Positions 11,461 to 34,881 of a DNA stretch of 64,000 nucleotides are shown in pieces. The notes under the pieces are model-generated. The model saw nothing but the letters and a program-made list of their open reading frames with translations. It made no database searches and had not been told where the DNA came from. Every line of letters begins with the position of its first letter. Positions within the stretch are counted from its first letter, which is position 1. Position numbers and translations under genes: made by a program. The stretch is from assembly GCA_030018915.1 (NCBI GenBank), contig JASEHE010000001.1:15843-79842 (forward strand). Reading direction: 5' to 3'. This DNA is from Verrucomicrobiota bacterium. GTDB taxonomy: Bacteria > Verrucomicrobiota > Kiritimatiellia > UBA8416 > SLMC01.

Positions 11461-11576
11461 AAACCTCCCGTGGGTCAAAAAAACGCGCGGCAATCCCGCA
11501 AACAACGAACGGGGGGACATATAGAAGATATGCCACGACAAAGCAAAGCAAAAATGCCGGAAACTTTTTCGCGGCA

Positions 11577-11586
11577 GGGGGGGGGG
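11577..11586. repeat. Homopolymeric G10 (C10) tract in the divergent promoter region between the pilus operon and the secreted-protein genes
   Basis: Ten consecutive G read directly at 11577-11586. It lies 117 nt upstream of the pilus-operon first gene (minus strand) and 271 nt upstream of the 490-aa secreted-protein gene (plus strand). Confidence 0.6.
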
Positions 11587-11705
11587 CAGTCGCGGGGTGG
11601 CGCCCCGGCGGCTTGCGCGGCCGGAGTTCGATATTTCCGCGTCCCCGCGGCGCAAGGCCGCAGGGACGCCACCCCGGACCACCCCGTTATTTCGCGTTTT
11701 TGCGG

Positions 11706-11747
11706 TTGACTTTGTTCGCGGGGTTGGGTTATTCTGTTCTATATTCT
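11706..11747 (+). promoter_or_regulatory. Possible sigma70-like promoter (TTGACT -35, TATTCT -10-like, 18-nt spacer) for the secreted-protein gene
   Basis: TTGACT at 11706-11711. TATTCT at 11730-11735 is 4/6 to TATAAT. Weak, consensus match only. Confidence 0.2.
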
Positions 11748-11856
11748 ATTAACTCGGTGATGACACATGTGGGTGTCTGCGATTGGCCCGAAGCTGCCGC
11801 AGGGACTGGATAGCAGACGGGCCGCCCGACGAACCGTCAGACCCGGAGGTTGCTCC

Positions 11857-13329: not shown

Positions 13330-13349
13330 ACGCCGGCCACCAATTGTCA

Positions 13350-13375
13350 GGGGCCGGCCGAGAGCGGCCGGCCCC
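13350..13375 (+). terminator. GC-rich perfect hairpin (11-bp stem, AGAG loop) downstream of the 490-aa gene; no U-tract
   Basis: GGGGCCGGCCG-AGAG-CGGCCGGCCCC read directly, 21 nt after the stop codon. Confidence 0.4.
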
Positions 13376-13592
13376 CATCGCGCGCCGGCTCTCCACAGCC
13401 ATCGCTCCGGCAGTGGGAATTCTTCACATTTCCTTGACGCTGTTGTCCTTGCCGTTCCTTTTCCCCCTGTGCTATAATTGCCGAAAACAGGGTGGATTGT
13501 GCCGCTGTCCCACGGGCTGGAACCCGTGCGCCGCAGCCGGGCGATGGCACGGCGGATGCTCCGTGGAATCTGAACGTCAGAGGCGAGGTGTC

Positions 13593-16500: not shown

Positions 16501-19500
16501 TGGACCCGGCCCTGAACCTGGCCGGCTTCAGTTGGTTCACCCAGACCAACTACTGGGGCGGCACCAACGAGTGGGGCGATCCGGGCCAGACCCGTTCGAG
16601 CCTCCCATTGACCGGCGTCATGAGCGCTGGCCCCTCGAATATCACGCTGTGCGGCCCGCAGTACGGCCAGGTAGTGATCCGGTTCAACGAGTCCAGCTCG
16701 AACTACACAGTGCAGCGCTGCGCGTACCAGGACTTCAACCGCTGGTCGGCCTCCTCCGACTTCTTCGAGGAAACCTGCAGCAGCGTCGGCGTCACATCGC
16801 GCGTCCAGAACTTCGACACGTGGGCAACCAACCCGCCATACATTCAAAAGGACGACTTCGAAAGCGCATACTGGTGGAATAATATCTACGGCTCCCACTA
16901 CCCGTCGTGGGACACCCGCCTGGTTCAGGGTCCCTCGTTCTGGACGTTCGCGCACTACAAGCTCACCAACAACTTCGAATTGGCGGGCGTCGGCAAGTGC
17001 GCTGTTCTCAAGGATGAGGCCAACTCCGGCCTGTTCTATTCGTCTTACCGCAATCCCATTGCTGACAATGGCCATGGACTCGGCTTCCTGGAGATGGACT
17101 TCCGGTGCCAGGACAACAATTGGAAGCCCACTTTGTACGAGCACAACGTCTGGTCAAATTCAGCCATTGAAGCCGCCGTCACCGCCACCGAACTGCCCAT
17201 CAGCGCGAATGGACTCATGCTGGGTCCCTCCTGGCTCTCTCTGCTTTCCCGCTATACGGCCGAAAACAACTACTATGAGCTCCGGTGGGAACACACCGGC
17301 TTGGGCCCTAGCGGGTTGGGCAAGCGTCGCCTCGGAATCTATCGCCGTTCTCCAGATCCGGTCGGCTTCACGCTTCTGGAATCTTCCGCCGAGTATAACG
17401 GCTTTCTCTCCACTACGAACACGCTGCGCTTTGTCGTGAGCGCGGCGGCCGGCGGAAAGGTCTATCTGCAGGGTCTTCTGGATGGCGCCCGTGTCGTGCA
17501 TGCAATAGACAACACCGGCTATGTCATCACCGATCCCGGCTCCATCGGCATCAACACCAGGGACGCCTCCATCATGGTCACGAACATCACCGCCGGCTGG
17601 GCGCAGGCGGAATCCTTCCGGGGCTGGCCCGACTTCACGGAGGGGTCCGACACCAACTTCGTCACCAACGGTTGGGCGGCAACGCGAATCTGCGACAGCA
17701 ACGGCAGCGGTGACAGCTGGATCCAACTGCGAGCCTGGAGCGCGGCGGGACAGCCCCCTGCGGTGGTCTCTCCCAAACTGCCGCACGGACTCGGCTTTGT
17801 GAACTATCGCTACAAGAAGTTCGAAGGCAACCCGACCTTGTGCAAGACGCAATGGTCCACCAACCTCGCCGACTGGGTAACCGTTGACGCCTGCGAGATT
17901 GGCGGCAGCGACTGGCAGGACCGGTCTTTCACGGTAACCAACGCGCTCCCCGCCAATATCTACGTCCGATTCCTCAACAGCACAAACGCGTCGGGTGTGT
18001 CAACGAACCTGTATCTCGCCCGCATCGCGCTGCACCCTTCGCCGACGCGCGGCTACGCCGAGAACTTTTCGGACAACCAGGCTCAGGGCTGGACCGGCGA
18101 TCCGAACTGGTGGAAGGTCAACACCAACGGGGTGCCACGCTACACCCGAACCGGCTATGCGGCCGCGCCGCTCAAGTTCGTGGTCAGCACGGCCAAGGAG
18201 AGCGACGAGAGCCAGCTGGCCCTGGACTCTCCCTGGGTCTTCAACGCCGCGTACACGGTCAGCAACGTCTCGTTTGTTCACTTGTCCCATCCCATCCGGT
18301 GGGCCGAACATCCCGGCACGCTCGGAGAAGGCGTCTACGTGCGGGTCAAGCACACCGACACGGACGCCAGCCTCGTGGTGGACAACGTCCAGATTGACCG
18401 CTGGCACGGCTACACGGCGAACGTCAACGGCTGGTCCGCCACCGAGTGCTGGACCTCGATGCGCGCCGCGAACGACGACTACACGGCCCACACCAACTGC
18501 CTCGAACTTCGCCATTCCCGGGCCTATACCAACATCTACGAGCGCCCATACTCCATCGGTGGCCAGTATGCGCGCAGCCCCTACCTCACTAACGGGATCG
18601 GCGTTCTCTCCTTCTCTTTCAAGAACGTCGCGCCCGAACCCAACCCGCTCGACACTGGGCAACCGGTATCTTTCGACTACTACCAGGGTGAGTGGACCAA
18701 TCTGCCGGATTTCGCCGGCCTCACCCCCTACATCTCAGGCACAACCAATAATTTCGACACGGCAGTCGCGCTCCGGCCAACCAACTTTGCCATCCGCTTC
18801 ACCGGCTATATCTACATTCCTACCAACGGCGCCTGGCTCTTTTCGACGGAATCCTCGGAGGGCAGCAAACTGTACATTGATGGAACCGAATTGGTGAACA
18901 ACGACGGGATTCACGCCAAGCAGAAGATCTCGGGATCGAACACCTTGAATCTGGGCTGGCACGACATCAAGGTCACGTATTTCAACGGCGCCGGCACTAA
19001 TGCCGCCTCTTTGGAGGTCCGATACGCAGGGCCAGGGGTCTCGGATCAGCCGATCCCCTCTTACGCCATGATTGTCGAGCCGGCCGTAGTCAAGGTGGAA
19101 ACGGCTGCCACCCCATTCCCGAGCACATGGAACACTCGCGCCACATACACAAACAACTGCCCTACCAAATGGACGTCCAAATCTATTTCCATCAACATCC
19201 CCAGTCCCTATATCGCCGCCAGAATCCTCCACGTGTCCACGAACTATCAAACCGGAATCCTCCTGGACAACTTCGAGGTGAATGACTTCGTGGAGCGCGA
19301 TCAGTTCACCTGGGTCGCCTACAACGCCCTGATCACGTCCAACCAGGCCAGCCGGCTCATGGACATCAAGGGCGGGTACCTCAACTACGACACCGTGAAC
19401 CAGACGGCCAAGCCGCCCATGACCAACGATCGGCCATATATTCAGTCCGCCAACCTGACGAACGGCATCGGCGAGATCAGTTTCTGGTATCGCGCCTGGG

Positions 19501-21035
19501 GCGGCGCTCCGCCCGCGGGCAACCCTGGAATCATCCGCATTGTCAAGGCGCCGGTGGAGACGGCGCCGGCCGGCGACTGGCTGCCGCTCCTGACGATCTC
19601 CAACATCACGACCACCACGTTCACCTACTTCACAACCAACTTCTACGACGCCACGAACCACTACGTCAGGCTCTACAGCGACACCACCGGCGTGGGCCGC
19701 GTCTGCCTCGACAACGTCCTGATCACCGCCCCCTTCGGCGCCGACATCTCCATGACCAACCTCTACATCGAGCCGGCCATCCCGCTGAACACCAACGCCG
19801 TGCACGTCTACGTGGACCTGTTCGACTTCTTCCTCAACCCCCAGAACATCGCCGTCAGCCTCCACTACTATGCCGCGCCCAACCAATGGGGCACCCTCCC
19901 TAACGGCACCCGCTTCTACCAGGGCACCAACCAGTGGGGCGCCTGGACCGGCGGATCCACGATCCCCATGACCGTCGTCAGCACGAACGGCTACTACGTG
20001 CGCTACAAGACCACGTCACCCATCCCGGTTCAAGCCATTGACCAGCCCGTCCAGTACTACGCGTCGGTCGCGTTCACCGGCATGTTCAGCGAGGCGGTCA
20101 GCCCCAGGTCCTGCAGGCAGTTCGTGAACGCGGCCCACTACTATCCGATCAACCTGAACGCCGGCCTGACCACGAACCGCATTCCCTACTACATCGTCTT
20201 CTCCTGCCTGCCGGGGCACGTCTGGATCAACGAAATCAACACCAGCGACGACTCCTACTGGCCGACGGCCGCCATGCAGTACGTCGAGCTCTGCGGGCGC
20301 ACGGGCAGCACCGTCAGCAACTGGTGGATCCAGATCTTCAGCCCCGGCTACAGCCAGCTTGCCTGGTATCGTGTGACCAATCCGCCCGCGCTGACCGACG
20401 AGAACAACGGCTACGGCTTCTGGGTGTTCGGCGACTCCCACACTCCGTCCCGCGATCTGACAATGACCGTCGAGGTGGGAAGTCCTCCCCACGAATCGCG
20501 GACGCTCCCGGCCGCCGGCGGAATCCGCCTGCGCCGGAGCATGGGCGCCTACGAGCAGGCGATCTCATACGATGCGCATGAGGGCGGCGGCGGCCGCAAC
20601 CTGGAGCCCTACGGATTCGTCTACGTCGGCCCCGACGACGACTTCCTGGACTCCCCCGTGTCCGCGTACGGGACCGGATCCAACAGCGCCGGCTTCACCT
20701 GGCGCAACGACACGACACCCTTCACACCCGGTGCCGTGAATACCGGCCAAACGCTGCTCGACTGGCGGACCGGCGGGGAACAGAACGCGCCACTCGTGGC
20801 AATCACCGCCTTCTGGATCGAGGGCGGAACCAGCGCGCACGTGACCTGCACCGGCACCAACGGCTGGTCTCCCTGGCTCTACTACTGCACGAACCTCCTC
20901 ACCACGCCCACGAACGGCTGGACTCTGGCCACAACCAACTCCACCTACGCCAACGGCACCAACCAGATCACCTCCACAGTGCTCACCAACCTGCCCGTCA
21001 TCTTCTACCGCGTCGTCGCCACCAACAGCGGCTGA
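13593..21035 (+). CDS. Giant secreted modular protein (~2480 aa) with PA14 domain, five related beta-sandwich-like modules, Ig-like spacers and C-terminal FYRV domain
   Basis: Signal peptide MRRSIGISFLLLGAMLAMAPRSRAA. Near-duplicate ~140-aa modules appear at ~13668-14090 and ~15578-16000 (YGTTVTNGDGW/SVSHCYVSNAF..CRMG.TNY...LTNG(I/F)G..SW). Further LTNGIG..SF(W/S) modules appear later. PA14 signature FAIRFTGYIYIPTNGAWLF...KLYIDG...GWHDIKVTYFNGAG...LEVRYAGPG at ~18786-19060. C-terminal ...LPVIFYRVVATNSG. Confidence 0.7.
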   Translation: MRRSIGISFLLLGAMLAMAPRSRAAYYDQDFNDFAYAYYGTTVTNGDGWAVSHCYVSNAFRYCRMGATNYQDATRLAYVISPLLTNGIGRISWETKNQQAGNNVYDLQYSTNGTAWTWGGAYTNSDVNWISNSLALISYASVYVRFIKTADPGGPNDRLYFDNIRIIPAASYVVITNIALSPDPPLTDGSVQVSATILPCAQAGNVSAWVYYATSGARPFANYASMSTTGNNYYVTSSGIPAHSQPGLTVKYYLYATFSGVTPLTPTSSPPGSVGYYWYFLRAASNESAYPNMQITGAATTNMLLAADYLWQGVITPPGPLTNPTFSFASGTNSWGDTNQPVTALPVYGAADPGANINVNETVTNYLSFLFNETNLSYSIQNSSCLNFDAWTNGTTASYGAYTNGEGWVIAGRINTLGAGETARAFINRYGILHPTLPINEPIHYLQSPQREGGIGSVSFWYRNWDAAPTNPATDAAGFTVQKSTNGAAGTWMDISPTIWQTNILSTNWLYFAASVADRKSAYVRIVNTNNTSSRSWLCLDEVVVTDPGATVDITENPRNPTTPLAGQWVDVSINVTPWGGATNLACAVYQQPEGMATVPYAMTRVAGNTFSVSLPPSPPGRVYYYYACNYGGFNATPIYYPDGAPGQTLVYTNLTDPGSARQQDFLPFNIANYGTTVTNSDGWSVSHCYVSNAFAHCRMGPTNYGGGTRFAYLASPLLTNGFGNVSWSVRNYQAGQNTYEAQYSTDQTNWVSLGAYANDSTAWVTNRVWGGIYEDSCVRIIKTGDPGEANDRLYFDDILISPPPCDVVISEPPFFTPGYPARNQPVTVSVFITDRSANYPACNRITTLHYTHSGGAGGVVAMTQGGGNAWSAVVPGFPAGVVSYYIRCCFDGYYYTNGAFSENQSPAFSPDAPPTAPEPSARHTHTIREFESDYDSIKVNLSYTNTPIAMRQLNDYEWQGILDFGYGTMDPALNLAGFSWFTQTNYWGGTNEWGDPGQTRSSLPLTGVMSAGPSNITLCGPQYGQVVIRFNESSSNYTVQRCAYQDFNRWSASSDFFEETCSSVGVTSRVQNFDTWATNPPYIQKDDFESAYWWNNIYGSHYPSWDTRLVQGPSFWTFAHYKLTNNFELAGVGKCAVLKDEANSGLFYSSYRNPIADNGHGLGFLEMDFRCQDNNWKPTLYEHNVWSNSAIEAAVTATELPISANGLMLGPSWLSLLSRYTAENNYYELRWEHTGLGPSGLGKRRLGIYRRSPDPVGFTLLESSAEYNGFLSTTNTLRFVVSAAAGGKVYLQGLLDGARVVHAIDNTGYVITDPGSIGINTRDASIMVTNITAGWAQAESFRGWPDFTEGSDTNFVTNGWAATRICDSNGSGDSWIQLRAWSAAGQPPAVVSPKLPHGLGFVNYRYKKFEGNPTLCKTQWSTNLADWVTVDACEIGGSDWQDRSFTVTNALPANIYVRFLNSTNASGVSTNLYLARIALHPSPTRGYAENFSDNQAQGWTGDPNWWKVNTNGVPRYTRTGYAAAPLKFVVSTAKESDESQLALDSPWVFNAAYTVSNVSFVHLSHPIRWAEHPGTLGEGVYVRVKHTDTDASLVVDNVQIDRWHGYTANVNGWSATECWTSMRAANDDYTAHTNCLELRHSRAYTNIYERPYSIGGQYARSPYLTNGIGVLSFSFKNVAPEPNPLDTGQPVSFDYYQGEWTNLPDFAGLTPYISGTTNNFDTAVALRPTNFAIRFTGYIYIPTNGAWLFSTESSEGSKLYIDGTELVNNDGIHAKQKISGSNTLNLGWHDIKVTYFNGAGTNAASLEVRYAGPGVSDQPIPSYAMIVEPAVVKVETAATPFPSTWNTRATYTNNCPTKWTSKSISINIPSPYIAARILHVSTNYQTGILLDNFEVNDFVERDQFTWVAYNALITSNQASRLMDIKGGYLNYDTVNQTAKPPMTNDRPYIQSANLTNGIGEISFWYRAWGGAPPAGNPGIIRIVKAPVETAPAGDWLPLLTISNITTTTFTYFTTNFYDATNHYVRLYSDTTGVGRVCLDNVLITAPFGADISMTNLYIEPAIPLNTNAVHVYVDLFDFFLNPQNIAVSLHYYAAPNQWGTLPNGTRFYQGTNQWGAWTGGSTIPMTVVSTNGYYVRYKTTSPIPVQAIDQPVQYYASVAFTGMFSEAVSPRSCRQFVNAAHYYPINLNAGLTTNRIPYYIVFSCLPGHVWINEINTSDDSYWPTAAMQYVELCGRTGSTVSNWWIQIFSPGYSQLAWYRVTNPPALTDENNGYGFWVFGDSHTPSRDLTMTVEVGSPPHESRTLPAAGGIRLRRSMGAYEQAISYDAHEGGGGRNLEPYGFVYVGPDDDFLDSPVSAYGTGSNSAGFTWRNDTTPFTPGAVNTGQTLLDWRTGGEQNAPLVAITAFWIEGGTSAHVTCTGTNGWSPWLYYCTNLLTTPTNGWTLATTNSTYANGTNQITSTVLTNLPVIFYRVVATNSG

Positions 21036-21186: not shown

Positions 21187-23547
21187 TCAGTCGCCTGAGC
21201 CGAGCCAGCGGAAGAACTGTACAAAGCATTCATGTCGGCCGTCCTTGTTCAGGAAAGGGTCCCGCCAGATCACGGCCATCGCCCGCTGGTACCCGTGCCA
21301 GTCTCCGCCCAGCAGCCCTTTGGATCCCAAGTGGCCGCTCGTCGGCGAATACGGCCCCGCCACCACGAACACCGTGAAGAGGTTCTGCCGCGCGCCAAGC
21401 AGGCCGCACGAGTATGAGATCATTGACTCCAGCTCAAGATCGCTCTTGTTCGAGAAAGTTCCTCTGAAATCTATCCGCCCGATATCGGCGACGTTCGTGA
21501 AGGCCGATCCGGTTTTCCGCATCTCGATGAACGCGCCGGCCAGCGTCTTGGCTTCCGCTACGGTTATTTTGGTTTCCGACTCCGGATACCCCAGCGGCGC
21601 CTCGACAAAGACGGAGGCCAGCACGTTCGAGTTCATGCTGTTCGGGTTCACCAGCCCGCAGCGCGTCCCGACGCCGGGTGGCGCCGTGGTGAAATACGCA
21701 AGGACATTGTCGTATGGCGTGGTATTCGGGGAATTGGTCCCGTGCGTGAACAGACGAATGGTTCTCAGCGGATCCTTCGAGGCCCGCAGCAGGTTCCCAA
21801 GCTCTCCCGCCGACTTCAGTTGCCCCTGGTTCGACACGTGCATCAACGTATCCAAGTCTATCCCGCGCTGAGGCTGCAGCTCCCCGCGCCTGATGCGTTC
21901 TTGCGTCTTCGTATTGACTCCTCCAATCGTGTGCCCGGCGTTCGTCGTCGTCGTGTCCCAGCACAGCGGGCTCGAGCAGTCCCAGTTGACCCGGGGATCC
22001 GTGGCCTCCAGCGATTTGGGCTGCCAATCGAAGTTGCCCCCGGCCAGGCCCGACACGATGAAGCTGTTGGTCCAGGTCAACGCGATGGCGTTCGTGGGAT
22101 AAGGCACGGCGTCCACCATCGCGTTCGGCGGCCCGCCGCCAATCGCCTCTTTGCAGTACACCACGCAGCGCACCCTCAGCGTCACGGCGATCCGGTTGGT
22201 CGGCCAACAGCCGTCGATCGAGACGTCTCCCACACCCCCCCGCAAGTCCGTCGAACCGTACCAGTTCGCCTCCCCCTTGTACCCCGAATAGCGCGTTTGC
22301 GGGTACGGGGGCATCTTCTTCGTCTCCTCGGCATTCGCGGCGCTCTCGTAAGCGAAGCGGGCAAGCTCGCATTCCGTCGTCGTTTCGATGTCGAACGTCG
22401 TGTTGGTCTGGCCCCGGATGAACGGGTAGAACCACTCCACCCGGATCCGTCGCGGCGGCGTCATCGAAAAGGTCCCCCCCTCCTCGCCCGTGATGTAGTT
22501 CAGAACCACTGTGGTTGGCGCCACCTCGTTGATCATGGGCACGGATTCCGTGCAGCCGGAGTCCAGGCGCCTTGGCACAACGTCCTCGTCCACGTAGTCG
22601 AGCAGGTTCGTAAAGACAAACGGAGCGTCGGCCAAGGCGATACCGCTTTTCACCAACCGGTCAACGATATCCGCCTGCTTGGCCTCCAGCTCCGCCACAG
22701 TCCCGCCGATGTAGAACGGGGTGACGATGATGGGGGCCCCGTTGGAAAGGACCTGATTCCCCTCCGGGAACCTGGAATAGGCGACGAAATTCGATGGGTA
22801 GCAGTCCTTGTTCAACCCTTTGTCTTCCTGCATCCAGTAGAAATCCCGGATTGTCTCGTAGCGCGCGTCGTTGTTCCGGTTGCCGGTGAGCTTCCCCGAA
22901 TCCTTGATCTCGTTCAGGATGGCGTTAGTGAGGACGATCTCATGCGGGTCTGCGCCCGCCGCGCGGTTGGAGCCGCCCACGTAGTTCATGTCGAGGTAGC
23001 CGGAGATATTCGCCACGACGTAGGCCACCCAACCCTGCACGGTCCCTTCTTCTCTATCCGGCCATAGCGACTCGCCGCAGATGAGCCACTGCGAGTTGGT
23101 CTGCGACATCGGTCCCCACAGGTCCCGCGGAATCTGCTCCATGGTTTCGTCGGAAAACACCACCTTCACCCGCGAATTGTCGACGCTTCTGGCGGTCCAG
23201 TCTTCCGAGGTGAAAACCTGGAAATTGGGATAGACATCGTTGGCCAGATAGCCCGTGATCTTACCGAAATCGTTGGTGAACACGTTGGTCTGCGCTACGT
23301 TGACCGTGATGTCTTCAACGGCCCGCGCCAGGCCCACCCAGACCAGTTGCCGCGCTCCGACGCCGAAGCGGTAACTACCGGCCCCCAGGCGCTCGGTCCG
23401 CATGCTGATGGAAAAGGCAACCCCCGCCATCAGGAGAACGGCCAGAACACCCAGCACGATAATCAGCGCCACGCCCTCGCGGTTCCGTCCTTCTCGAAAT
23501 CCGCGCCCGGCAACCGGCGCGCGACAGTCCGGTTTATTTTTTCGCAT
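21187..23547 (-). CDS. Oversized GspK-like minor pseudopilin (786 aa)
   Basis: N-terminus REGVALIIVLGVLAVLLMAGVAFSI matches the GspK-type prepilin-like hydrophobic segment (no Glu+5). Last gene of a gspG-H-I-J-K-ordered operon. C-terminal ~450 aa beyond normal GspK length. Confidence 0.6.
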   Translation of the reverse strand: MRKNKPDCRAPVAGRGFREGRNREGVALIIVLGVLAVLLMAGVAFSISMRTERLGAGSYRFGVGARQLVWVGLARAVEDITVNVAQTNVFTNDFGKITGYLANDVYPNFQVFTSEDWTARSVDNSRVKVVFSDETMEQIPRDLWGPMSQTNSQWLICGESLWPDREEGTVQGWVAYVVANISGYLDMNYVGGSNRAAGADPHEIVLTNAILNEIKDSGKLTGNRNNDARYETIRDFYWMQEDKGLNKDCYPSNFVAYSRFPEGNQVLSNGAPIIVTPFYIGGTVAELEAKQADIVDRLVKSGIALADAPFVFTNLLDYVDEDVVPRRLDSGCTESVPMINEVAPTTVVLNYITGEEGGTFSMTPPRRIRVEWFYPFIRGQTNTTFDIETTTECELARFAYESAANAEETKKMPPYPQTRYSGYKGEANWYGSTDLRGGVGDVSIDGCWPTNRIAVTLRVRCVVYCKEAIGGGPPNAMVDAVPYPTNAIALTWTNSFIVSGLAGGNFDWQPKSLEATDPRVNWDCSSPLCWDTTTTNAGHTIGGVNTKTQERIRRGELQPQRGIDLDTLMHVSNQGQLKSAGELGNLLRASKDPLRTIRLFTHGTNSPNTTPYDNVLAYFTTAPPGVGTRCGLVNPNSMNSNVLASVFVEAPLGYPESETKITVAEAKTLAGAFIEMRKTGSAFTNVADIGRIDFRGTFSNKSDLELESMISYSCGLLGARQNLFTVFVVAGPYSPTSGHLGSKGLLGGDWHGYQRAMAVIWRDPFLNKDGRHECFVQFFRWLGSGD

Positions 23548-23971
23548 ATCGCCTCGCGTTCACCATATAGGCGCGGGTTATATACTGCTGTTCCATTGAC
23601 TTCGGCAACGATTCTGCGGTGCGCTGCACCCTATACGGTTTCTTCCAGGGATCGTTGAAGCCGTTGACCAGTTGCCGATCGGAAAAAGTCATGAACTTGA
23701 TGTTGTTCGTGTTGTTCCACGCCAGGATGGCCACTTGGGCGTAATCCATCTCAACCCACGCATTACCATAGGGCCACAGCTGGTAGGTGTCCCAGTAGCT
23801 CTCCCATGCCTTGGCCAGGTCCGCCGCTTCCGACCTGGCCTTTCGGACTCTGGCCATCCGCTGCGCGTGAACAAGCGCTGGAAACATAAGACCAGCCAAC
23901 ACCAGGATGATCAACACCACTACCAGTATCTCAATGAGCGTGAACGCCCGCCGCGCCGCGGCTTCCACCAT
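23534..23971 (-). CDS. Type IV pilin-like / pseudopilin protein
   Basis: Start chosen at MVEAAARRA-FTLIEILVVVLIILVLAGLMFPAL, a class III prepilin cleavage/methylation N-terminus. Confidence 0.6.
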   Translation of the reverse strand: MVEAAARRAFTLIEILVVVLIILVLAGLMFPALVHAQRMARVRKARSEAADLAKAWESYWDTYQLWPYGNAWVEMDYAQVAILAWNNTNNIKFMTFSDRQLVNGFNDPWKKPYRVQRTAESLPKSMEQQYITRAYMVNARRYAKK

Positions 23972-24063
23972 TTTGTGGCACTCATGGCCAGGCTCTTTAT
24001 TCGGCAATCGGCAATCGGCAATCGGCATTCCGTTGTGGCCCTGCCGCTCTGTGTTCATCGAGT

Positions 24064-24726
24064 TCATTGGTCCGTCCGGATGTTGTCGTCTTCCGCATCC
24101 CAGTTGCCGTCCGGCCCGCCCGATCCCGCCACGATTCGGGAGACTTGGTACGAAGAACCCATCTTAATCTTGATGTCCACGAACTGCGGGAGGTTGCTCC
24201 TGTTCATGGAATACTCCTCATCGGAGGGGCAAAATATCAGCTCATTAACGTGTTTCGCCAGGGTCCCCGATTTCTTCGGCAACTCCGTCCCTGGGTATCC
24301 CCCGCTAAGTTCGTGCCGAACCATCTCTCGCACAATCGTCTCATCCTGGTGGAAGTAACGAATCCGGTAGATCGCGCGATTAGTGTCCGTGGCATCCTCA
24401 ATCAAGTAGAAAGCGATTTTATCCGGCTCGATCGTGAACGGGAGCAGTTCGTTTGCCACGGCCTGGCACAGTTCCCGGCCCATGAAGGTCGCGGCAGCTC
24501 TCCCCTCCACGTTCAACTTCGATCTCCGCATCCCAACGTCCCAGGCCACGCGCATCTGATTGAACACGCTGCCAATCATCATCACGATCATCATCAGGAT
24601 CACTGCGGCAACGAGAATCTCCAAAAGAGTGAATCCGTTTTCCCTCAACACGCCGGCGTCCGCCGTTTTGCCCGCAAAACGGACAGTTCGAATCTCAGAT
24701 CGACTTCGTATTTCGCGCTTCAACAT
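24064..24726 (-). CDS. Pseudopilin (GspJ position)
   Basis: Start chosen at MLKREIRSRSEIRTVRFAGKTADAGVLRENG-FTLLEILVAAVILMMIV prepilin-type N-terminus. The longer ORF start would overlap the upstream gene by 40 nt. Confidence 0.55.
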   Translation of the reverse strand: MLKREIRSRSEIRTVRFAGKTADAGVLRENGFTLLEILVAAVILMMIVMMIGSVFNQMRVAWDVGMRRSKLNVEGRAAATFMGRELCQAVANELLPFTIEPDKIAFYLIEDATDTNRAIYRIRYFHQDETIVREMVRHELSGGYPGTELPKKSGTLAKHVNELIFCPSDEEYSMNRSNLPQFVDIKIKMGSSYQVSRIVAGSGGPDGNWDAEDDNIRTDQ

Positions 24727-24730
24727 AACC

Positions 24731-24756
24731 GCCCACCGACTACCGACCACCGATAC
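24731..24756. repeat. ACCGAC heptad repeat (x3) copy between two pseudopilin genes
   Basis: CCCACCGACTACCGACCACCGATACT in the 30-nt gap between the GspI-position and GspJ-position genes. Confidence 0.45.
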
Positions 24757-25319
24757 TACGGCATTCCGCCGTAGAAGAACTCCGTGTAGAACCATTGCGC
24801 CTCATTCGTGACGAAATGGTTCCCAAAACACACCCTGAGATCCGCGACCCGCACATGCTTGTACCGATCTTTGCCGAACGGCTCCCCCTGCATGTCCACG
24901 ATCACGTTGGTGACCGCCAGGATGTAACACATCCCCACTCCTTGCTTGAGGAAATTGGCGATCTTCTGCTGCCGGCCGTCCCCGATCAAGTACGTGGAAC
25001 CTGGCTGGTAGTAAATCGGAACCTTGTCCACCACCTGCTGCTGGAAATCGTCCTGATTGGTCCACACCTGGAAGTCCGACACCTTCATCGCTTCGGCGCG
25101 CAGTCCGGTCAATGCCTGCTCGGCGAACAGGCCGATGTGCGTGTCCTCCACCGCGAGGTCGGCTTGCTTGAGCCCAGCCGGAAACAGGGCAAAAAGCGTC
25201 AGAACTCCAGCGCCGACGAGCAGCACGGCCAGACTGACCTCGACCAGGCTGAATCCTCCATTCGACCGAGGCAGCGCCGGTCGTCCGATCGTCGCGTTGA
25301 GATGCGGTTCGTTCGCCAT
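24756..25319 (-). CDS. Pseudopilin (GspI position)
   Basis: MANEPHLNATIGRPALPRSNGG-FSLVEVSLAVLLVGAGVLTLFALFPAGL prepilin-type N-terminus. 187 aa. Confidence 0.6.
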   Translation of the reverse strand: MANEPHLNATIGRPALPRSNGGFSLVEVSLAVLLVGAGVLTLFALFPAGLKQADLAVEDTHIGLFAEQALTGLRAEAMKVSDFQVWTNQDDFQQQVVDKVPIYYQPGSTYLIGDGRQQKIANFLKQGVGMCYILAVTNVIVDMQGEPFGKDRYKHVRVADLRVCFGNHFVTNEAQWFYTEFFYGGMP

Positions 25320-25358
25320 GGTTGCGCCCCCGCGCCGTCAATGTTCGGTTTCTTACGG

Positions 25359-26069
25359 CTATTCCGAGATTTCCACAAGGCCCGTCAGCCCCAGTACGCG
25401 GATTTCCCGGCGCCCTGCTCCATTCTTCTCCTTGATCGTGATTACGTAATTGGCGGCGCCCGACTTCGGCGTGGCGCCGTCCGGAAAGAATATAATCCCC
25501 TCCGGCGCATTGTTCTCTTCCGCATTGTCGAACTTCAAGGTGGACGGCAGGAACTGAATCTCGTGGGCCAGCCATCCGAACTTGTCGCCTCTGTTCCAAA
25601 AATCCCTCTTGCCGCCGGTCAACTTCCCACCCACGACAGTGAGCGTTTGGGGGCTGTTGTCGGCCACCACGCCCCAACTCCCGGCCGTCAGGTTATAGAT
25701 TGTGCCGCCTTTCAGAGTGTCGTTCCACCGGGGATATCCTGAGTCCAACTGCGCGACGCCATCCTCTCCGTAATGGCGCCCGGCTTCCGAACAAACCCAG
25801 TAGCGGGCATTGAGCCCGTCGGTATTATCCTGCCGGAAGAACACGTATGTGCTCGCCCCGTGCGTCATGGCATGCTGCCGAGCCAGGCTGATGACGCGGT
25901 GCAGGTTCGAGAGCCCCCCCCGGATCGCGGAACCTCGTACGATTCCGAACCAGGCCGCCATCGCCATCCCCATCACAATGAATATGATGGACATGACGAT
26001 GAGCAGCTCAAGCAGGGTGAACCCTGCCCGATGCTTCCCGGCTGCCCGCCGAATTCCAGCCCGCGTCAT
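25359..26069 (-). CDS. Pseudopilin (GspH position)
   Basis: Start chosen at MTRAGIRRAAGKHRAG-FTLLELLIVMSIIFIVMGMAMAAW prepilin-type N-terminus. Confidence 0.6.
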   Translation of the reverse strand: MTRAGIRRAAGKHRAGFTLLELLIVMSIIFIVMGMAMAAWFGIVRGSAIRGGLSNLHRVISLARQHAMTHGASTYVFFRQDNTDGLNARYWVCSEAGRHYGEDGVAQLDSGYPRWNDTLKGGTIYNLTAGSWGVVADNSPQTLTVVGGKLTGGKRDFWNRGDKFGWLAHEIQFLPSTLKFDNAEENNAPEGIIFFPDGATPKSGAANYVITIKEKNGAGRREIRVLGLTGLVEISE

Positions 26070-26085
26070 TGCGGCTTGCCTCCTG

Positions 26086-26511
26086 TCAGTCTTTTGCCGA
26101 CTGGTCGTTGACCACTGCGTTCGTTTCGGACACCGTGATACTGTAATACACGCCATAGGGGTCCTTCACGGAGCCCTGGCTGTCGCGATTGAACGTGCCC
26201 TTGTTCAGGTATCGCATGTTCGCGGAATTGGCGCCTTCCAATAGTTTGACCACCAGGCAGTTGTCTTCCTCGTATGTCTTCCAGCCCTCCGGCGACGGCT
26301 TGGGCCATGTCATCTCCTCCAACTTGTAGGCTTTCAGGGCAGCGATGAGCGCCTTCTCCTCCAGTTCCTTTTGCCTGCGCTTCGCGCTTTCTTTGGACGG
26401 CTGCAACACGGGCAGCAGCAGGCCGATCAGGATCGTAATCACCACGATCACCATGAGCAGCTCGATCAGCGTGAAGCCCCGCCGCGCCGCGAATCGAAAC
26501 GTCCGGGTCAC
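26086..26511 (-). CDS. GspG-like major pseudopilin / type IV pilin
   Basis: 141 aa. MTRTFRFAARRG-FTLIELLMVIVVITILIGLLLPVL, the canonical prepilin leader + Phe+1/Glu+5 + hydrophobic helix. Size typical of GspG. Confidence 0.7.
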   Translation of the reverse strand: MTRTFRFAARRGFTLIELLMVIVVITILIGLLLPVLQPSKESAKRRQKELEEKALIAALKAYKLEEMTWPKPSPEGWKTYEEDNCLVVKLLEGANSANMRYLNKGTFNRDSQGSVKDPYGVYYSITVSETNAVVNDQSAKD

Positions 26512-26517
26512 GAGTCG

Positions 26518-27033
26518 TCACTCCTTCCAACTGCAGATGTCGTCGGCCGTGTGCGAAACCCCGTCCGGCCCGTCCGACCAGACTGCCACGTTGACGCCGA
26601 TCCACGGCCCACCCCCATTCAATTGCACTCGATTGTCCATGTCCGTGTCGAGCGCCACTTTGTAGACGCCCTTGGTGGTGTTTGGAACGCCCCAGGGATC
26701 GCAATAGTAAATTGTGTTGGTCCTCACGTCGAGGAACGGGATGTTCCACGGATTATTGGGGTGGGCGTTCGTGGAATCAGCGGTGACGCCTCTCAGAATG
26801 GACAGGGCGTTCGAATCCATCATGGCGATCGGCATTGGCGGAAAGGTTTTGTAGCTCAGCAGATAGGCTTTCCACGCTTCGTCGAGTTCCTTCACTTCCC
26901 GTTTGGCACGGGCGACTCTAGCCTTCTTCCGCGAATGCATGACGACCGGCAGCATCAAGCCCAGCAGGACGCCGATGATCGCGATGACCACCAGCATCTC
27001 GATCAAGGTAAAGGCTTCGATTCGCCTACCCAT
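26518..27033 (-). CDS. Type IV pilin-like protein
   Basis: Start chosen at MGRRIEA-FTLIEMLVVIAIIGVLLGLMLPVV. The upstream part of the longer ORF is R/G/A-rich and non-protein-like. Confidence 0.55.
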   Translation of the reverse strand: MGRRIEAFTLIEMLVVIAIIGVLLGLMLPVVMHSRKKARVARAKREVKELDEAWKAYLLSYKTFPPMPIAMMDSNALSILRGVTADSTNAHPNNPWNIPFLDVRTNTIYYCDPWGVPNTTKGVYKVALDTDMDNRVQLNGGGPWIGVNVAVWSDGPDGVSHTADDICSWKE

Positions 27034-27128
27034 CACACTGTTCCTTTCCGAAGCCCGCGCGGCGCCTCGTATCCCGCAACTTCGCTCCGCCGCCTTGCTG
27101 GAGACTGTGGAAAGGGCCGCCGGACTCT

Positions 27129-27917
27129 CTACTCCGACCAGGAACCTCCCGAAGGCCCGCAAGAAACGTCGTCCGATGTGTTGGCCACACCGTCCGGCCC
27201 ATTTGACCACAGCCGGTACGAACGGTGCGGAGGCGGACACTCGTATATGTATTCGCGGTCCCAAGGATCCATGACGGTTGCAACCGTGTTGCTGTATTGC
27301 AGGTCCATGCCGGATGACTGCGGGGTACTGCAGCTCCGAAGGCTGCGGCCCAGCGAAACGTGCCGCAAGAAATTAGCTATGCGTCCCTTGACTGCCTTGT
27401 CCCGGTCGGTGTCCTTGTCGTAGGGATGCTTTTGGGGCTTTGGTTCCTTCTCTCCCATGTCGCGCGGCCAGAGAAAGGCCACTAGCCCGTAGCTGTAGCC
27501 CAGGCCCCCCTTAATTTCGCTGCTGAAATAGCCCTTGTAACCATCGTCGAACCTGTCCAGATCCCCGTCCAGGAAGAACGTCCCGCGGTTCGACGGATCG
27601 TTGTGAGCATCGAGCCACTGCCGCCACGCCGGCGGCTGATTTGTCAGGCACTCATATTCGTACCCCATACTGCTTTTGTTTTCCCCAACCTTCACTATGG
27701 GATAGGTCCCGTAGGCCGTGTAGTACTCGTTTAAGGCGTTCTTGAGCGCCTGAAGGTCTGCCACGCACTTTTTTCGCCTCGCCTCCTCGCCGAAATGCGC
27801 CACGCTCTTCAGAAGAACGGCCGACAGGAGGAGAATAACGATGACCACCACCAGCATCTCGACAAGAGTGAACCCCCTCGTCTTGACGGCCGGCGCGAGA
27901 CTGCCGCGCTTCGTCAT
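27129..27917 (-). CDS. Type IV pilin-like protein (first gene of pseudopilin operon)
   Basis: MTKRGSLAPAVKTRG-FTLVEMLVVVIVILLLSAVLL prepilin N-terminus. 262 aa. Confidence 0.65.
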   Translation of the reverse strand: MTKRGSLAPAVKTRGFTLVEMLVVVIVILLLSAVLLKSVAHFGEEARRKKCVADLQALKNALNEYYTAYGTYPIVKVGENKSSMGYEYECLTNQPPAWRQWLDAHNDPSNRGTFFLDGDLDRFDDGYKGYFSSEIKGGLGYSYGLVAFLWPRDMGEKEPKPQKHPYDKDTDRDKAVKGRIANFLRHVSLGRSLRSCSTPQSSGMDLQYSNTVATVMDPWDREYIYECPPPHRSYRLWSNGPDGVANTSDDVSCGPSGGSWSE

Positions 27918-28249
27918 AACCCACCCCCTAACTTCTTCGATCTAAAGGTACCAGACCGCGCGTTTTTCCACAACATTTTTTTGCGTTTCTGCGATTCACG
28001 CGAACTTCACGCCCTATCGTAGAGCAATAAGGCGGTGGCACATGGCGGGCAAGCCGGACGGGCGTTGAGAGTGAACACGGCGCGGCGAAGCCGCGCAACT
28101 GGTTCCCGAACACGGCGCGTCCCGGTTCGAGGGTCACGGGTCGCTTGCCTTTTACACGGGGCGGCGGTATCATAGTCTGGTGTTCGGTTGACCCGGACCG
28201 GCGGCCGGTTGCCTGTCGGATCGCCGGAATACTGGGCAAGGTGGATTCG

Positions 28250-29530: not shown

Positions 29531-29926
29531 CTAGTCGATGTAGACGTGTTCCGGGAAAGAACCTACCACCGGGCACGTAGGCGTTTCGTCAACGCGGTTA
29601 ACGTAGTAGTATTGAACAGTCGCTTGGCCGGCCCCAGCTTCGAGACACTCCAGAACGTGGGTGCCATCTATGTAGGGGTCCAAGTTCGACCAGGCGGTTG
29701 CGTCGTTCGCGCCGGCTGATTGACCAATAATCTGCCCGTTTGTCCAATCGAGCTTGATGGCCAGCACTTCCTTGGCGTGGTCAATCAAGCGCAGGTTATT
29801 GACGCACAGTCCCCGACGCGCATCCTTGCGATACTGCAGAAAGGCGGGGATGGCGATCGCGGTCAGCAATGCAATAATCGCCACCACGATCATAATCTCC
29901 ACCAACGTGAAACCTCTTTTCTTCAT
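29531..29926 (-). CDS. pilA: Type IVa major pilin
   Basis: 131 aa. MKKRG-FTLVEIMIVVAIIALLTAIAIPAF (short leader, Phe+1, Glu+5). GGAGGAG RBS directly upstream. Sigma54 -24/-12 promoter ~100 nt upstream. Confidence 0.75.
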   Translation of the reverse strand: MKKRGFTLVEIMIVVAIIALLTAIAIPAFLQYRKDARRGLCVNNLRLIDHAKEVLAIKLDWTNGQIIGQSAGANDATAWSNLDPYIDGTHVLECLEAGAGQATVQYYYVNRVDETPTCPVVGSFPEHVYID

Positions 29927-30021: not shown

Positions 30022-30036
30022 ACGGGAACGAGCAAT
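30022..30036 (-). promoter_or_regulatory. Sigma54 (RpoN) -24/-12 promoter for pilA
   Basis: Plus strand reads GCAA-TACTT-GTGCCA, i.e. TGGCAC-N5-TTGC on the minus strand, an exact match to the GG-N10-GC consensus. It lies ~96 nt upstream of the pilA ATG, next to a PilR-like sigma54 activator gene. Confidence 0.55.
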
Positions 30037-30316
30037 ACTTGTGCCAAGCACAAGACGAAAACGCCAAGCCGGCATCACAACGCTCAACAATTTAGAATTC
30101 GCAAGGAATGTTACTTTATGCGAACAAGATCAATCTCGACAATGAGAACACAATGGATCAATAATGAGAGTCGTTTTTCGCAAAAATGAACCCGGTTCTG
30201 CTCGGAAATAACAAGAATGTGCGCCAGCCTGAACTGAGATACGGCTAATCCCGCATGCTGGACTGATCGGATTCAGACTCAAAGCCACCCCCACCCCGAA
30301 CCCTGAACCCTCACTC

Positions 30317-31711
30317 CTATTCTCCTTCCACCGGGTGCTTTGCCTCTTCGCCATCAGGAAGCTTGCGGTAGAGAGTGGCCAGACTGATCTTGAGCGCTTT
30401 TGCGGCCTTCTCCTTGTCGCCATTCGCGACGGAGAGGACCTGCTTGAGGTACTCCTTCTCCTTGGTTCGAAGGAAGGCCTTCAGGGACTTCGCTTTCGTT
30501 GAATCAATGTCTTCCGCCCCAAGAGGTTTTGAAGTTTGTATCGGCGTGACGGCTATCTTCGGAGGAAGCACATCCTTGGTGATCTTGTTGTCCCGCGCAA
30601 AGGTGATGGCATGCTTGATGGCGTTTTCCAGCTCTCGGACGTTCCCCGGCCAGGGATAGGATTCGAAGATTGCCGATATTTCCGGATCGATCAAGGGAGG
30701 GGGCTGCCCCTGCGGAGTCTCGGTGCGTAGAAAATGAGAAACAAGCAGCAGAATATCCTCGCGTCGTTCCCGTAGTGGCTTGATCTCGATGGGGATAACG
30801 TTCAGCCGATAGAAGAGGTCCTCGCGGAACTTGCCTTCCTGGATCATCTTCTCGATGTTGGTATTGGTGGCGGCAATGACGCGCACGTCAATGGGGACAT
30901 CCTTGTTACTGCCGACTCTGCGGACTTCCTTCTCCTGAAGCACGCGCAGGAACTTGCCCTGGATACTGAGCGGCATGGAGGAAACCTCGTCAAGGAAGAC
31001 GGTGCCGCCGACCGCGGCTTCCAGAAGGCCTTCTTTGTTGGCCGTGGCCCCGGTAAAGGATCCCTTTACGTGCCCGAACATCTCCGATTCCAGGAGGGGC
31101 TCCGGGAGCGCCGCGCAACTGACCGCCAGGAAGCGCTTGTCGCGGCGCTGGCTGTGCGCATGAATGGCCTTGGCAACCAGTTCCTTACCTGTTCCGCTCT
31201 CGCCGTAGATCAGCACAGCCGTGTTTGTGGGCGCGACTTTCTTGATCATTTCGCAGACATTCTGCATGGCCTTGCTCTCGGCCACGATGTTATTCAAGTG
31301 GTATCGCGCCCCGAGCTGGGCCTTGAGGTAGACGTTCTGGACCCGCAACTTGCTGTACTCCAGGGCGCGCTGGACGGTGATGAGGAGTTCGTCCACTTTA
31401 AAGGGCTTGGTGACGTAGTCGAACGCGCCGAGCTTCAGAGCCTCGATCGCGGTCTCCACGGAACCGTAGGCGGTAAGCATGACGACCGGCAGGGCGGGTT
31501 TTTCGTCATGGACGCATCGGAGCAGTTCCATGCCGCTGATGGGCGCCATGCGGATGTCAGAAAGCATGAGGTCGAATTCCTGGCTCGCCAGCAATTCCTT
31601 GGCCTTCTCGCCGCCGAGAGCAGGAACAACATCATGCCCCTCTGCCTTGAGAAGAGTGCTGAGAACGCTCAGGATACTGGGCTCGTCGTCAATAAGGAGT
31701 ATTTGGGCCAT
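30317..31711 (-). CDS. pilR: Sigma54-dependent response regulator (NtrC family; PilR-like)
   Basis: 464 aa. REC domain (ILLIDDEPSI...D54-like), AAA+ sigma54-interaction domain (GESGTGKE, GAFTGA-like ESEMFGHVKGSFTGA), C-terminal HTH. Confidence 0.85.
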   Translation of the reverse strand: MAQILLIDDEPSILSVLSTLLKAEGHDVVPALGGEKAKELLASQEFDLMLSDIRMAPISGMELLRCVHDEKPALPVVMLTAYGSVETAIEALKLGAFDYVTKPFKVDELLITVQRALEYSKLRVQNVYLKAQLGARYHLNNIVAESKAMQNVCEMIKKVAPTNTAVLIYGESGTGKELVAKAIHAHSQRRDKRFLAVSCAALPEPLLESEMFGHVKGSFTGATANKEGLLEAAVGGTVFLDEVSSMPLSIQGKFLRVLQEKEVRRVGSNKDVPIDVRVIAATNTNIEKMIQEGKFREDLFYRLNVIPIEIKPLRERREDILLLVSHFLRTETPQGQPPPLIDPEISAIFESYPWPGNVRELENAIKHAITFARDNKITKDVLPPKIAVTPIQTSKPLGAEDIDSTKAKSLKAFLRTKEKEYLKQVLSVANGDKEKAAKALKISLATLYRKLPDGEEAKHPVEGE

Positions 31712-31862: not shown

Positions 31863-33083
31863 TCAGCCCTTCTGCACTATTTCGCCGATCTTGAAGATGG
31901 GGAGAAACAGGCAGACGACAATTCCGCCGATGAGCACGCCGAGGATCACCATAAGCAGCGGTTCGAGCAGGGAGGTGAGGCCAGCCAGGGTGGTTTCAAC
32001 TTCGTCGTCGTAGAAGTTGGCGATGTTGTCCATCATCTCGTCGATTTTCCCCGTCTTTTCGCCGGCCTGCAGCATGCGCACGAGCATGATTGGAAAGACG
32101 GTCTGAGTCAGCATGGCGTTGGAAAGCGGCTCTCCCTTTTCCAGGCAGCCTCTGGCGCTCAGGACGATATTGCCCGCCACCTTGTTGCCGGTGGCGCCGG
32201 CGACGATGTCGATGGCGGTGAGGATCGGGACGCCGCTGCGAATGAGCTGTCCGAACATGCGGGCAAAGCGGGAAGACGCCACTTTCTTGTTCAAGTCGCC
32301 GAACACGGGCAGTCGGAGCGCCAGCCGGTCCAGAATGAATCCGCCCGTCGGCGTGGCCTTCCATTTTTTGAAGGCGATCACAAGCCCCGCGATGAGCAGA
32401 ACGACCACCAGCCCGTTGTGGCGGATGAGATTGCTGAGGTTCATGAGGGCCCGCGTCGGCCCTGGGAGTTCCCCGCCGAGTCCCGCGAACATGTCGGCGA
32501 AGATCGGGACCACGAAAACAACGAGGGCGGTGGCAATGGTGAGGGCCAGGCACATGACGATCGCGGGATACATCATGGCGGACTTGACTTTGCGGCGGAG
32601 TTTGGCGCTGGATTCCAGAAAACCGGCGAGTCGCGCAATGGTTTCCGGCAGTTGCCCGCCGGATTCGCCGCCCTTGACCATGTTGCGGTACAGGTCGTCG
32701 AACACCGATGGGAACTGACGCAGCGCGTCCGAGAAGGCGGCCCCGTTTTCGATGTTGCGCTTGATCTGGCCGATTGCGTATTTGAAGTTGGGGTTGTCGG
32801 CCTGTTCCTCCATGGCTTCGAGGGACGCGAGGATCGGCATGCCGGCGGACAACATGGCGGAGAGCTGGCGGGAAAAACCCGGCAGCGTCTTCTGCACGAT
32901 CTTCTTGGCGCCCGGCACTTTTTTCTTGGCGCCCGCCCTGGCGGCGGCTGGCGCGCCCGTCTTTTGCGTGGCCGCTGATGTGGAAGTGGAGACGGCAGGG
33001 CGAACCCCGGCCGCTCGCGACACGACAGGACTCATGGCGCATGTCTCCTTTAAGCAGTCGGCGCGTTTCCCAGGCAGAGCCAA
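31863..33083 (-). CDS. pilC: Type IV pilus / T2SS inner-membrane platform protein (PilC/GspF family)
   Basis: 406 aa. Duplicated GspF-type domains with three TM segments (YPAIVMCLALTIATALVVFVV, LVVVLLIAGLVIAF, LLMVILGVLIGGIVVCLFLPI). Confidence 0.8.
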   Translation of the reverse strand: MALPGKRADCLKETCAMSPVVSRAAGVRPAVSTSTSAATQKTGAPAAARAGAKKKVPGAKKIVQKTLPGFSRQLSAMLSAGMPILASLEAMEEQADNPNFKYAIGQIKRNIENGAAFSDALRQFPSVFDDLYRNMVKGGESGGQLPETIARLAGFLESSAKLRRKVKSAMMYPAIVMCLALTIATALVVFVVPIFADMFAGLGGELPGPTRALMNLSNLIRHNGLVVVLLIAGLVIAFKKWKATPTGGFILDRLALRLPVFGDLNKKVASSRFARMFGQLIRSGVPILTAIDIVAGATGNKVAGNIVLSARGCLEKGEPLSNAMLTQTVFPIMLVRMLQAGEKTGKIDEMMDNIANFYDDEVETTLAGLTSLLEPLLMVILGVLIGGIVVCLFLPIFKIGEIVQKG

Positions 33084-34874: not shown

Positions 34875-34881
34875 GTCTCGA

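Follow-up and report, generated by a model that had tools for sequence, protein, structure and literature searches.

The last of eight close-packed genes in a Verrucomicrobiota bacterium encodes g8, a protein that is probably a domain-inserted cap subunit of the GspK/PilX class, belonging to the filament that a type IV filament machine of the Verrucomicrobiota builds. Subunits of the GspK class initiate type II secretion pseudopili, as well as many type IV pili, and form their caps. We analyzed a 64,000-nucleotide stretch of this genome (contig JASEHE010000001.1, positions 15,843 to 79,842; hereafter the window), in which g8 follows seven prepilin genes, g1 to g7. The eight genes form a genuine pseudopilin operon, which belongs to the same filament machine. 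According to an AlphaFold2 model and to hhalign, the ~450 extra residues of g8 are internal to the protein; an earlier sequence-only reading of this DNA had placed them at the C-terminus.

The GspK fold of g8 and its insertions

The N-terminus of g8 reads ...REG/VALIIVLGVLAVLL, where the slash separates positions -1 and +1. Glycine is found at position -1 in all 41 homologues with a residue there, and position +5 is I, L, M or V in 43 of the 43 aligned homologues, Glu in none. Because Gly-1 is conserved and position +5 is hydrophobic and never Glu, we assign to this family the signature of GspK. Two claims of the sequence-only reading are confirmed, namely that the last gene has a GspK-type N-terminus devoid of Glu+5 and that its product is more than twice the length of GspK (786 versus ~330 amino acids (aa)). 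The 43 homologues range from 679 to 1035 aa, with a median of 728.

Sequence models were applied both to g8 and to its homologues. No Pfam family is matched by g8. Its NCBIfam match, of 12.7 bits, concerns positions 1-45 of the Verru_Chthon cassette protein A (TIGR02600, cut-off 332.3 bits), and the GspK model NF037980 (cut-off 130 bits) gives no match at E <= 0.1. Weak matches to TIGR02600 are observed in 43 of 43 homologues and to NF037980 in 40 of 43; in the ten relatives that we tabulated, both are restricted to the N-terminal helix, with best scores of 31 bits for TIGR02600 and 28.9 bits for NF037980. A search of the family profile against sequences from the PDB returned no match even at E <= 10.

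The AlphaFold2 model of g8, built from the 43-sequence alignment, is confident, with a predicted local distance difference test (pLDDT) score of 86.3 and a predicted template modelling score (pTM) of 0.81; pLDDT falls below 50 in residues 1-20 only. The N-terminus is modeled as a long pilin helix of 62 residues (24-85). Next come a mixed beta/alpha part to residue 319, some 15 strands between residues 338 and 532, helices from 546 to 711 and long final strands (722-782). The extra part of the protein is folded in the model (pLDDT mostly above 85), with no disorder.

As a reference we used GspK/XcpX (PDB 3CI0 chain K and 5VTM chain X; Pfam PF21687 and PF03934; NCBIfam NF037980), represented by a 36-sequence alignment. 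When hhalign was run against the single E. coli GspK, or with default settings against the GspK profile, the N-terminal helix was the only part matched. Local alignment with a lower mact and alternative alignments gave two hits. The first (93.9%) covers the N-terminal part of g8: helix 20-88 is aligned to GspK 2-69, a strand with the motif NxSGLLDxN is paired with GspK ...cFNLN, and NLLDYVDxD (314-322) is paired with DWIDxD (147-156). The second (85.2%, E 6e-6) aligns g8 526-780 to GspK 147-325. Here, the two helix-hairpin-helix (HhH)-like motifs SVGELG and GLVNxNT correspond to SELR and INvNT; RQNLFtI is aligned where the C-terminal sheet begins, and VWRDP with the final strands. The C-terminal strands of the model span 722-735, 754-766 and 772-782, the latter two aligning to GspK 307-325; W761 and R762 are invariant in the family. 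Model and alignment together indicate that g8 has the GspK pilin domain and alpha-domain fold with both HhH-like motifs, and that C-terminal beta-strands supplied in cis are predicted to complete its pilin sheet.

Two aspartates in the first hit, D317 (conserved in 40 of 43 homologues) and D320 (41 of 43), are aligned to the near-invariant D150 and D153 of GspK. By sequence, the DxxD motif of g8 matches the canonical GspK calcium-site motif and is a putative metal site.

The largest insertion, of about 200-225 residues, extends from the calcium motif to the first HhH motif. Two others can be located from motif spacing, one of ~55 residues within 89-170 and one of ~85 within 189-309, and there are small additions elsewhere. 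The three insertions more than double the size of GspK in g8. The main one is seen in 43 of 43 homologues, at lengths of 152 to 237 aa, and both model and alignment depict it as an autonomous beta-sandwich of ~200 residues, lodged inside the part aligned with the GspK alpha-domain, directly after the calcium motif.

These positions bear on a different view of g8, in which a normal GspK domain (about the first 330 residues) would be followed by a C-terminal PilY1-like adhesin or plug of ~450 residues. The length of g8 relative to GspK and its GspK-like N-terminal helix would suit such a protein, and minor pilins often have a large tip adhesin encoded next to them (PMC13533445). However, both the model and the alignment contradict it: the extra residues are internal, and the GspK fold, with its conserved end, extends to the C-terminus of g8. 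We regard this arrangement as extremely improbable.

The pseudopilin operon

The eight genes lie on the minus strand from 27917 to 21187, with intergenic gaps of 0-95 nucleotides and several overlaps; the stop codon of g7, for instance, overlaps the start of g8 by 14 nucleotides. Gene boundaries agree exactly with those given by the sequence-only reading. Its main statement on the operon, seven consecutive genes for class III prepilins, also proved right. When the window is translated in six frames, [GAS]F[TS]L[IVL]E[IVML] is matched 8 times, compared to 0.02 times expected from shuffles; 7 of these matches are in g1-g7, which succeed one another from 27917 to 23534, and the last is in a separate pilin gene (29531-29926). 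All 8 are followed by a hydrophobic stretch of ~20 residues. The signal in g1-g7 takes the form [GA]/F[TS]L[IVL]E[IVML], and the Pfam N-methyl motif scores above its cut-off in 6 of the 7 prepilins, g5 falling below. The lengths of g2, g4, g6 and g7 in the list of open reading frames (ORFs) are too long, and internal starts fit better.

The residue at position -1 is Ala in g2 and g7, not Gly. Replacement of Gly by Ala or Ser at this position is observed in several prepilins of such operons (in the window and in the related loci L009 and L003), with examples such as AFTLIEI (g7, 23947) and AFTLIEM (g2, 27015) in the window and SFTLIEM in one Kiritimatiellae relative.

For the identity of g1-g7, we compared small alignments from five syntenic relatives with the Gsp proteins of E. 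coli K-12, using hhalign. The resulting order is G, G, G, H?, I?, J, G, K, each label meaning a likeness. The canonical order G-H-I-J-K initially proposed is thus retained in part: this is a pseudopilin operon ending in a protein of the K class, with an additional GspG-like gene, g7, that separates the J-like g6 from the K-like g8.

Genes g1, g2, g3 and g7 match E. coli GspG at 97.7-98.6%, most of the length of GspG being covered by g2 and g7 only, and are mutually paralogous (98-99.9% across all pairs). Individual values against GspG are 98.5% for g1, 98.6% over 130 columns for g2 and 98.3% over 105 columns for g7, while the match of g3 is confined to N-terminal residues 1-60. Among the paralogs, g2 is related to g3 at 99.7% over 112 columns and to g7 at 99.9%. 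The GspG-typical loop GPDGxxxxxDD closes both g1 and g2. Pfam T2SSG (cut-off 21 bits) is matched by g1 above its cut-off (1.6e-11, 44.6 bits) in two stretches, hence our description of g1 as GspG-like with an internal insertion; g2, at 17.2 bits, is below. Scores for the GspG model TIGR01710 are 68.6 (g1), 48.5 (g2), 47.5 (g3) and 40.3 bits (g7), each under the cut-off of 88.85, and every NCBIfam equivalog score of g1-g7 is likewise under its cut-off. The 141-aa gene g3 had been singled out as the GspG of the operon. Its first 60 residues are indeed GspG-like, but g1 and g2 match GspG better.

The labels of g4 and g5 come from gene position, N-terminal motif and sub-threshold matches, and we accordingly call g4 H-like and g5 I-like in a tentative manner. 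For g4, Pfam GspH gives an E-value of 0.0064 (below cut-off), TIGR01708 29.8 bits and hhalign a weak alignment to GspH (77.6%, 60 columns). For g5, TIGR02523 PilV (9.2e-6) and Verru_Chthon B (1.8e-5) match the N-terminal part only; no homologue of the globular part was detected, and hhalign to GspI yields 4.8%. Searching PDB sequences with the g4 and g5 family profiles produced no globular match and nothing beyond the N-termini. The J-like g6 aligns to E. coli GspJ at 85.5% over 151 columns and matches TIGR01711 and Verru_Chthon C, both sub-threshold.

Matches to Verru_Chthon models in several of these genes raise the question of whether we are dealing with the known four-gene cassette specific to the Planctomycetes-Verrucomicrobia-Chlamydiae (PVC) group, and not with a pseudopilus set of the type II secretion kind, g8 being a short version of cassette protein A and the H-, I- and J-like genes being cassette D, B and C. 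Consistent with this, TIGR02600 is matched weakly by all 43 family members (best 8e-11), g4, g5 and g6 match cassette proteins D, B and C, respectively, again weakly, and the family profile search retrieves two proteins of ~1300 aa, the size of protein A, through their N-termini. The scores, however, are far from what membership would require, whether for g8 (see above) or for B, C and D (25-26 bits versus cut-offs of 51-256 bits). The matches span the first 45-85 residues only, and the operon has eight genes, four of them GspG-like. Identity with the cassette is therefore improbable in our view; the two families are probably distinct, each having elaborated the same H-I-J-K module as the sister of the other.

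Related loci and the filament machine

A profile search of 1.84 billion representative sequences (50% identity) identified 7,075 proteins related to g8 at E <= 0.001 and 1,331 at E <= 1e-30. The best 150 matches are nearly all end-to-end, and most are 650-800 aa long. Homologues from word-indexed searches have no precomputed Pfam domain, and the few that are named are all 'hypothetical protein'; a third homologue search, by profile, added just the two N-terminal matches of ~1300 aa and no named cultured organism. Matches in genomes come from metagenome-assembled genomes of Kiritimatiellae, Victivallales/Lentisphaeraceae and Verrucomicrobia. This K-like family, with ~7,000 representatives and restricted to PVC bacteria in our sample, has no Pfam or NCBIfam model, and defining it would improve the annotation of thousands of genes. 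In the literature, we found nothing on the 'Verru_Chthon cassette' or on pseudopilins of Kiritimatiellota/Lentisphaerota.

Related loci were searched with a 6-sequence alignment of the g8 family. Five of them (L001, L007, L008, L009 and L012) have seven prepilin genes and then a K-like gene, and the GspG-like gene between J and K keeps its position in five related loci. Four of the five share the same order of mature sizes (~230, 170, 135, 220, 150, 190 and 137 residues); L007 deviates by a shorter fourth prepilin gene, of 137 residues. The fifth prepilin, of ~150 residues, always has GFSL[VI]E[VI], so that the motif is kept at the operon position of g5 in all five. GspF is encoded directly upstream of the 7+1 operon in many relatives (order F-G...K). 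A second arrangement, observed in L003, L010 and L013, consists of 4-5 prepilins, K, a further prepilin, which is H-like according to one gene call (L004), and then a protein of 1277-1836 aa. In the Kiritimatiellia relative L003/L004, the call for the first GspG-like gene (7230-8009) includes a nucleotidyltransferase substrate-binding domain (PF08780), and a Pol-beta type nucleotidyltransferase gene precedes it; this pair may be a toxin-antitoxin-like insertion at the operon start or result from a gene-call fusion.

Convergent to g8 in the window is a gene for a giant protein of 2563 aa with a PA14 domain and an apparent N-terminal Sec signal, read by eye from the translation (Table 1). Nine loci from three PVC lineages hold a homologue beside the K-like gene (L003/L004, L006, L007, L009, L010, L011, L013 and L030; tblastn E 1e-22 to 1e-161), either convergent to K or co-directional with it, downstream of the extra prepilin. 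All homologues have in common the C-terminal ~600 residues. That homologues adjoin the K-like gene in nine related loci makes the giant protein a conserved partner of this gene, and it may be a cargo or an adhesin.

Table 1. Features of the window, by position in the window
Feature	Position	Strand	Description
g1	27129..27917	-	262-aa prepilin, leader MTKRGSLAPAVKTRG/FTLVEM; GspG-like
g2	26518..27033	-	~171-aa prepilin, MGRRIEA/FTLIEM; full-length GspG-like; C-terminus ...SDGPDGVSHTADDICSW
g3	26086..26511	-	141-aa prepilin, G/FTLIEL; GspG-like paralog with no C-terminal DGxxDD loop
g4	25359..26156	-	Prepilin, G/FTLLEL, 220-aa mature part; GspH/FimU position; likely start ATG 26069
g5	24756..25319	-	187-aa prepilin, G/FSLVEV; GspI/PilV position
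g6	24064..24795	-	Prepilin, G/FTLLEI, 189-aa mature part; GspJ/PilW-like
g7	23534..24067	-	Prepilin, A/FTLIEI, 136-aa mature part; fourth GspG-like paralog, between J and K
g8	21187..23547	-	786-aa enlarged GspK-class minor pseudopilin; NCBI QME60_00125, 'hypothetical protein'
g8 residues 21-85	23293..23487	-	GspK-type class III signal REG/VALII, no Glu+5; long N-terminal pilin helix
g8 residues 317-322	22582..22599	-	DYVDED, counterpart of GspK calcium-site motif DWIDxD
g8 residues ~336-545	21913..22542	-	Predicted inserted beta-sandwich domain, between invariant VPMINE and DPRxNW
g8 residues ~570-782	21202..21840	-	Predicted C-terminal half of GspK fold: HhH-like SAGELG and GLVNPN, helices, VWRDP strands
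PA14 protein	13344..21035	+	2563 aa; convergent to g8; PA14 2.5e-11
Separate pilin gene	29531..29926	-	MKKRG/FTLVEI, 126-aa mature part; PilA-type N-terminal matches; candidate major pilin
Sigma-54 -24/-12 element	30032..30046	-	TGGCACAAGTATTGC; ~106 nucleotides upstream of pilin gene
Sigma-54 activator	30317..31711	-	NtrC/PilR-type; adjoins sigma-54 element
GspF/PilC	31863..33083	-	Pfam T2SSF 2.9e-64
GspE/PilB ATPases, tandem	33099..34916, 34882..36606	-	T2SSE 6.7e-123 and 5e-132; both with MshEN N-terminal domains
PilM-like (Amuc_1101 family)	9032..10699	-	Pfam PilM_2; NCBIfam 493 bits, cut-off 650
Amuc_1100-like	8019..9035	-	NCBIfam 90.8 bits, cut-off 180
Amuc_1099 family	6949..8022	-	NCBIfam 66.6 bits, passes cut-off 50
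Secretin with TPR (Amuc_1098 family)	3992..6910	-	Pfam Secretin; NCBIfam 413.6 bits, cut-off 750

Other machine genes are found on both sides of the operon. Downstream, beyond the giant gene, is a platform/secretin operon (3992-10699) with the gene order and strand described for Akkermansia, where the Amuc_1098-1101 cluster, which includes Amuc_1100, is known as 'type IV pili-like' or MUL2 (PMC10688800, PMC13174399) and is tied by reviews to mucin utilisation (PMC12418764). The interval that separates the PilM operon from the giant gene has two plus-strand ORFs with no Pfam family, one of 520 aa (11767-13329) with a weak match to the Amuc_1099 family (E 3e-6) and one of 386 aa (10549-11709), which overlaps the PilM gene on the opposite strand and may be spurious. 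Upstream of the pseudopilin operon are the separate pilin gene, the sigma-54 activator, GspF and two GspE/PilB genes that overlap slightly. The element TGGCACAAGTATTGC is the sole match to the sigma-54 consensus with 0 mismatches in the window, and no perfect consensus occurs upstream of g1. From these sequence features, the separate pilin gene looks like a PilR-regulated major pilin. Divergent from the pseudopilin operon, and between it and the pilin/activator genes, a plus-strand gene (28145-29419) encodes a 424-aa protein in which two PAS domains, but no kinase domain, are recognised. The remainder of the window consists of housekeeping genes.

The window ORFs that we scanned include none for a prepilin peptidase, GspL, GspM, GspC or PilT. 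The lack of a peptidase in this set, along with the bulk of g8, which makes its passage through a secretin questionable, might suggest that g8 is no filament subunit at all and instead a bitopic inner-membrane/periplasmic protein with a borrowed pilin-like anchor, for instance a platform protein or a substrate recruiter. We find this very unlikely: g8 has the whole GspK fold, alpha-domain and calcium motif included, Gly-1 is conserved, the place of the gene at the end of a pseudopilin operon is strictly conserved, and a tip subunit can be bulky, as ComZ and CpaL illustrate.

Proposed role of g8 and comparison with known systems

If g8 is a cap subunit as we propose, the machine would comprise the two GspE ATPases, GspF, the PilM-like platform, the secretin and a prepilin peptidase encoded elsewhere. 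Cleaved at Gly25, g8 would join the I-like g5 and J-like g6 through its N-terminal helix in a tip initiation complex, and, because it brings its own last strand, would not need a PilY1-type partner. The H-like g4, the GspG-like g7 and g1-g3 would then link the tip to the fibre body, leaving the inserted beta-sandwich displayed at the distal end of the pilus or pseudopilus. There, it would most probably act as a binding or docking module, whose target would be either a glycan or the giant PA14 protein, its conserved neighbour; a less probable role is that of a bulky plug restricting passage through the secretin. The tip-located binding domain that had been proposed from the sequence does not hold as a C-terminal extension, but may apply to a domain inserted in the cap subunit. 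Kiritimatiellae, Victivallales and Verrucomicrobia are major degraders of polysaccharides and mucin, and the inserted domain is a concrete candidate for what filament tips recognise. As a speculation, the sigma-54 pilin and the pair of ATPases would be consistent with two filaments that use a common platform.

We may also hypothesize, although we consider it rather unlikely, that the cap, the seven pseudopilins, the PA14 giant and the Amuc_1098-1101-like platform and secretin constitute one PVC-wide machine, whose beta-sandwich docks or captures polysaccharide, mucin-type glycans or the giant protein. In that event, the Akkermansia MUL2 'pili-like' system would work via a pseudopilus tipped by a dedicated, unrecognised ligand-binding subunit. 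Domain-inserted GspK-like tip subunits and PVC cassettes with giant K-like proteins were already known. What is new here is the topology of the insertion, the size of the family and its complete lack of annotation, the conservation of both the 7+1 operon and the linkage to a giant PA14 protein, and the proximity in the window to homologues of Amuc_1098-1101.

With GspK, g8 shares a class III signal devoid of Glu+5, a long N-terminal helix, the DxxD motif, last strands in cis, an alpha-domain that interrupts the pilin sheet and has two HhH-like motifs, and a gene position after H-, I- and J-like genes. It differs from GspK (~300-350 aa) in its 786 aa, in a beta-sandwich of ~200 aa with no GspK counterpart, in scores below every sequence-model threshold and in the extra GspG-like gene between J and K. 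Unlike the type II secretion system, its machine would have a PilM-type platform of the Amuc_1101 family, and GspL, GspM and GspC are absent from the window ORFs scanned.

Like the Verru_Chthon cassettes (TIGR02600, TIGR02598, TIGR02599 and TIGR02596), which also belong to the PVC lineage, the operon combines prepilin-type proteins, three in the cassettes, with one very large protein whose N-terminus is GspK-like. However, it has eight genes instead of four, protein A reaches ~1300 aa, and mutual matches are weak, N-terminal and far below cut-offs.

Like PilY1/PilC, g8 is a large protein encoded with minor pilins, and its presumed tip role is analogous. PilY1 has a C-terminal beta-propeller; neither this domain nor strand donation in trans is a feature of g8. 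PilK-type subunits take their last strand in trans from PilY1/PilC, whereas GspK of the type II secretion system and CpaL/TadG have theirs in cis (Ellison et al., PMC13533445). The likeness to PilY1 suggested by the sequence-only reading is not sustained, as g8 is of the cis-strand type and has a pilin helix; PilY1 has none, and provides PilK/PilX with a strand in trans (PMC13533445).

CpaL/TadG of Caulobacter Tad pili is a minor-pilin-like tip protein of ~600 aa, whose middle region is partly dispensable for assembly (PMC13533445). Similarly, g8 has a large middle region between an N-terminal pilin-like domain and a sheet-completing C-terminal strand; unlike this protein of the Tad clade, it retains the GspK alpha-domain. 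ComZ of Thermus thermophilus carries a beta-solenoid of ~380 aa between its last two strands and has no alpha-domain; it is a proposed DNA receptor at the tip, where alone, it was argued, an added domain is possible (PMC6561018). With ComZ, and with CofB of enterotoxigenic Escherichia coli (cited in PMC6561018), g8 shares the combination of a GspK-like pilin fold and an extra beta-rich domain, although, unlike in ComZ, the beta-sandwich of g8 sits within the region aligned to the GspK alpha-domain. CpaL, ComZ and CofB are the closest architectural precedents of g8.

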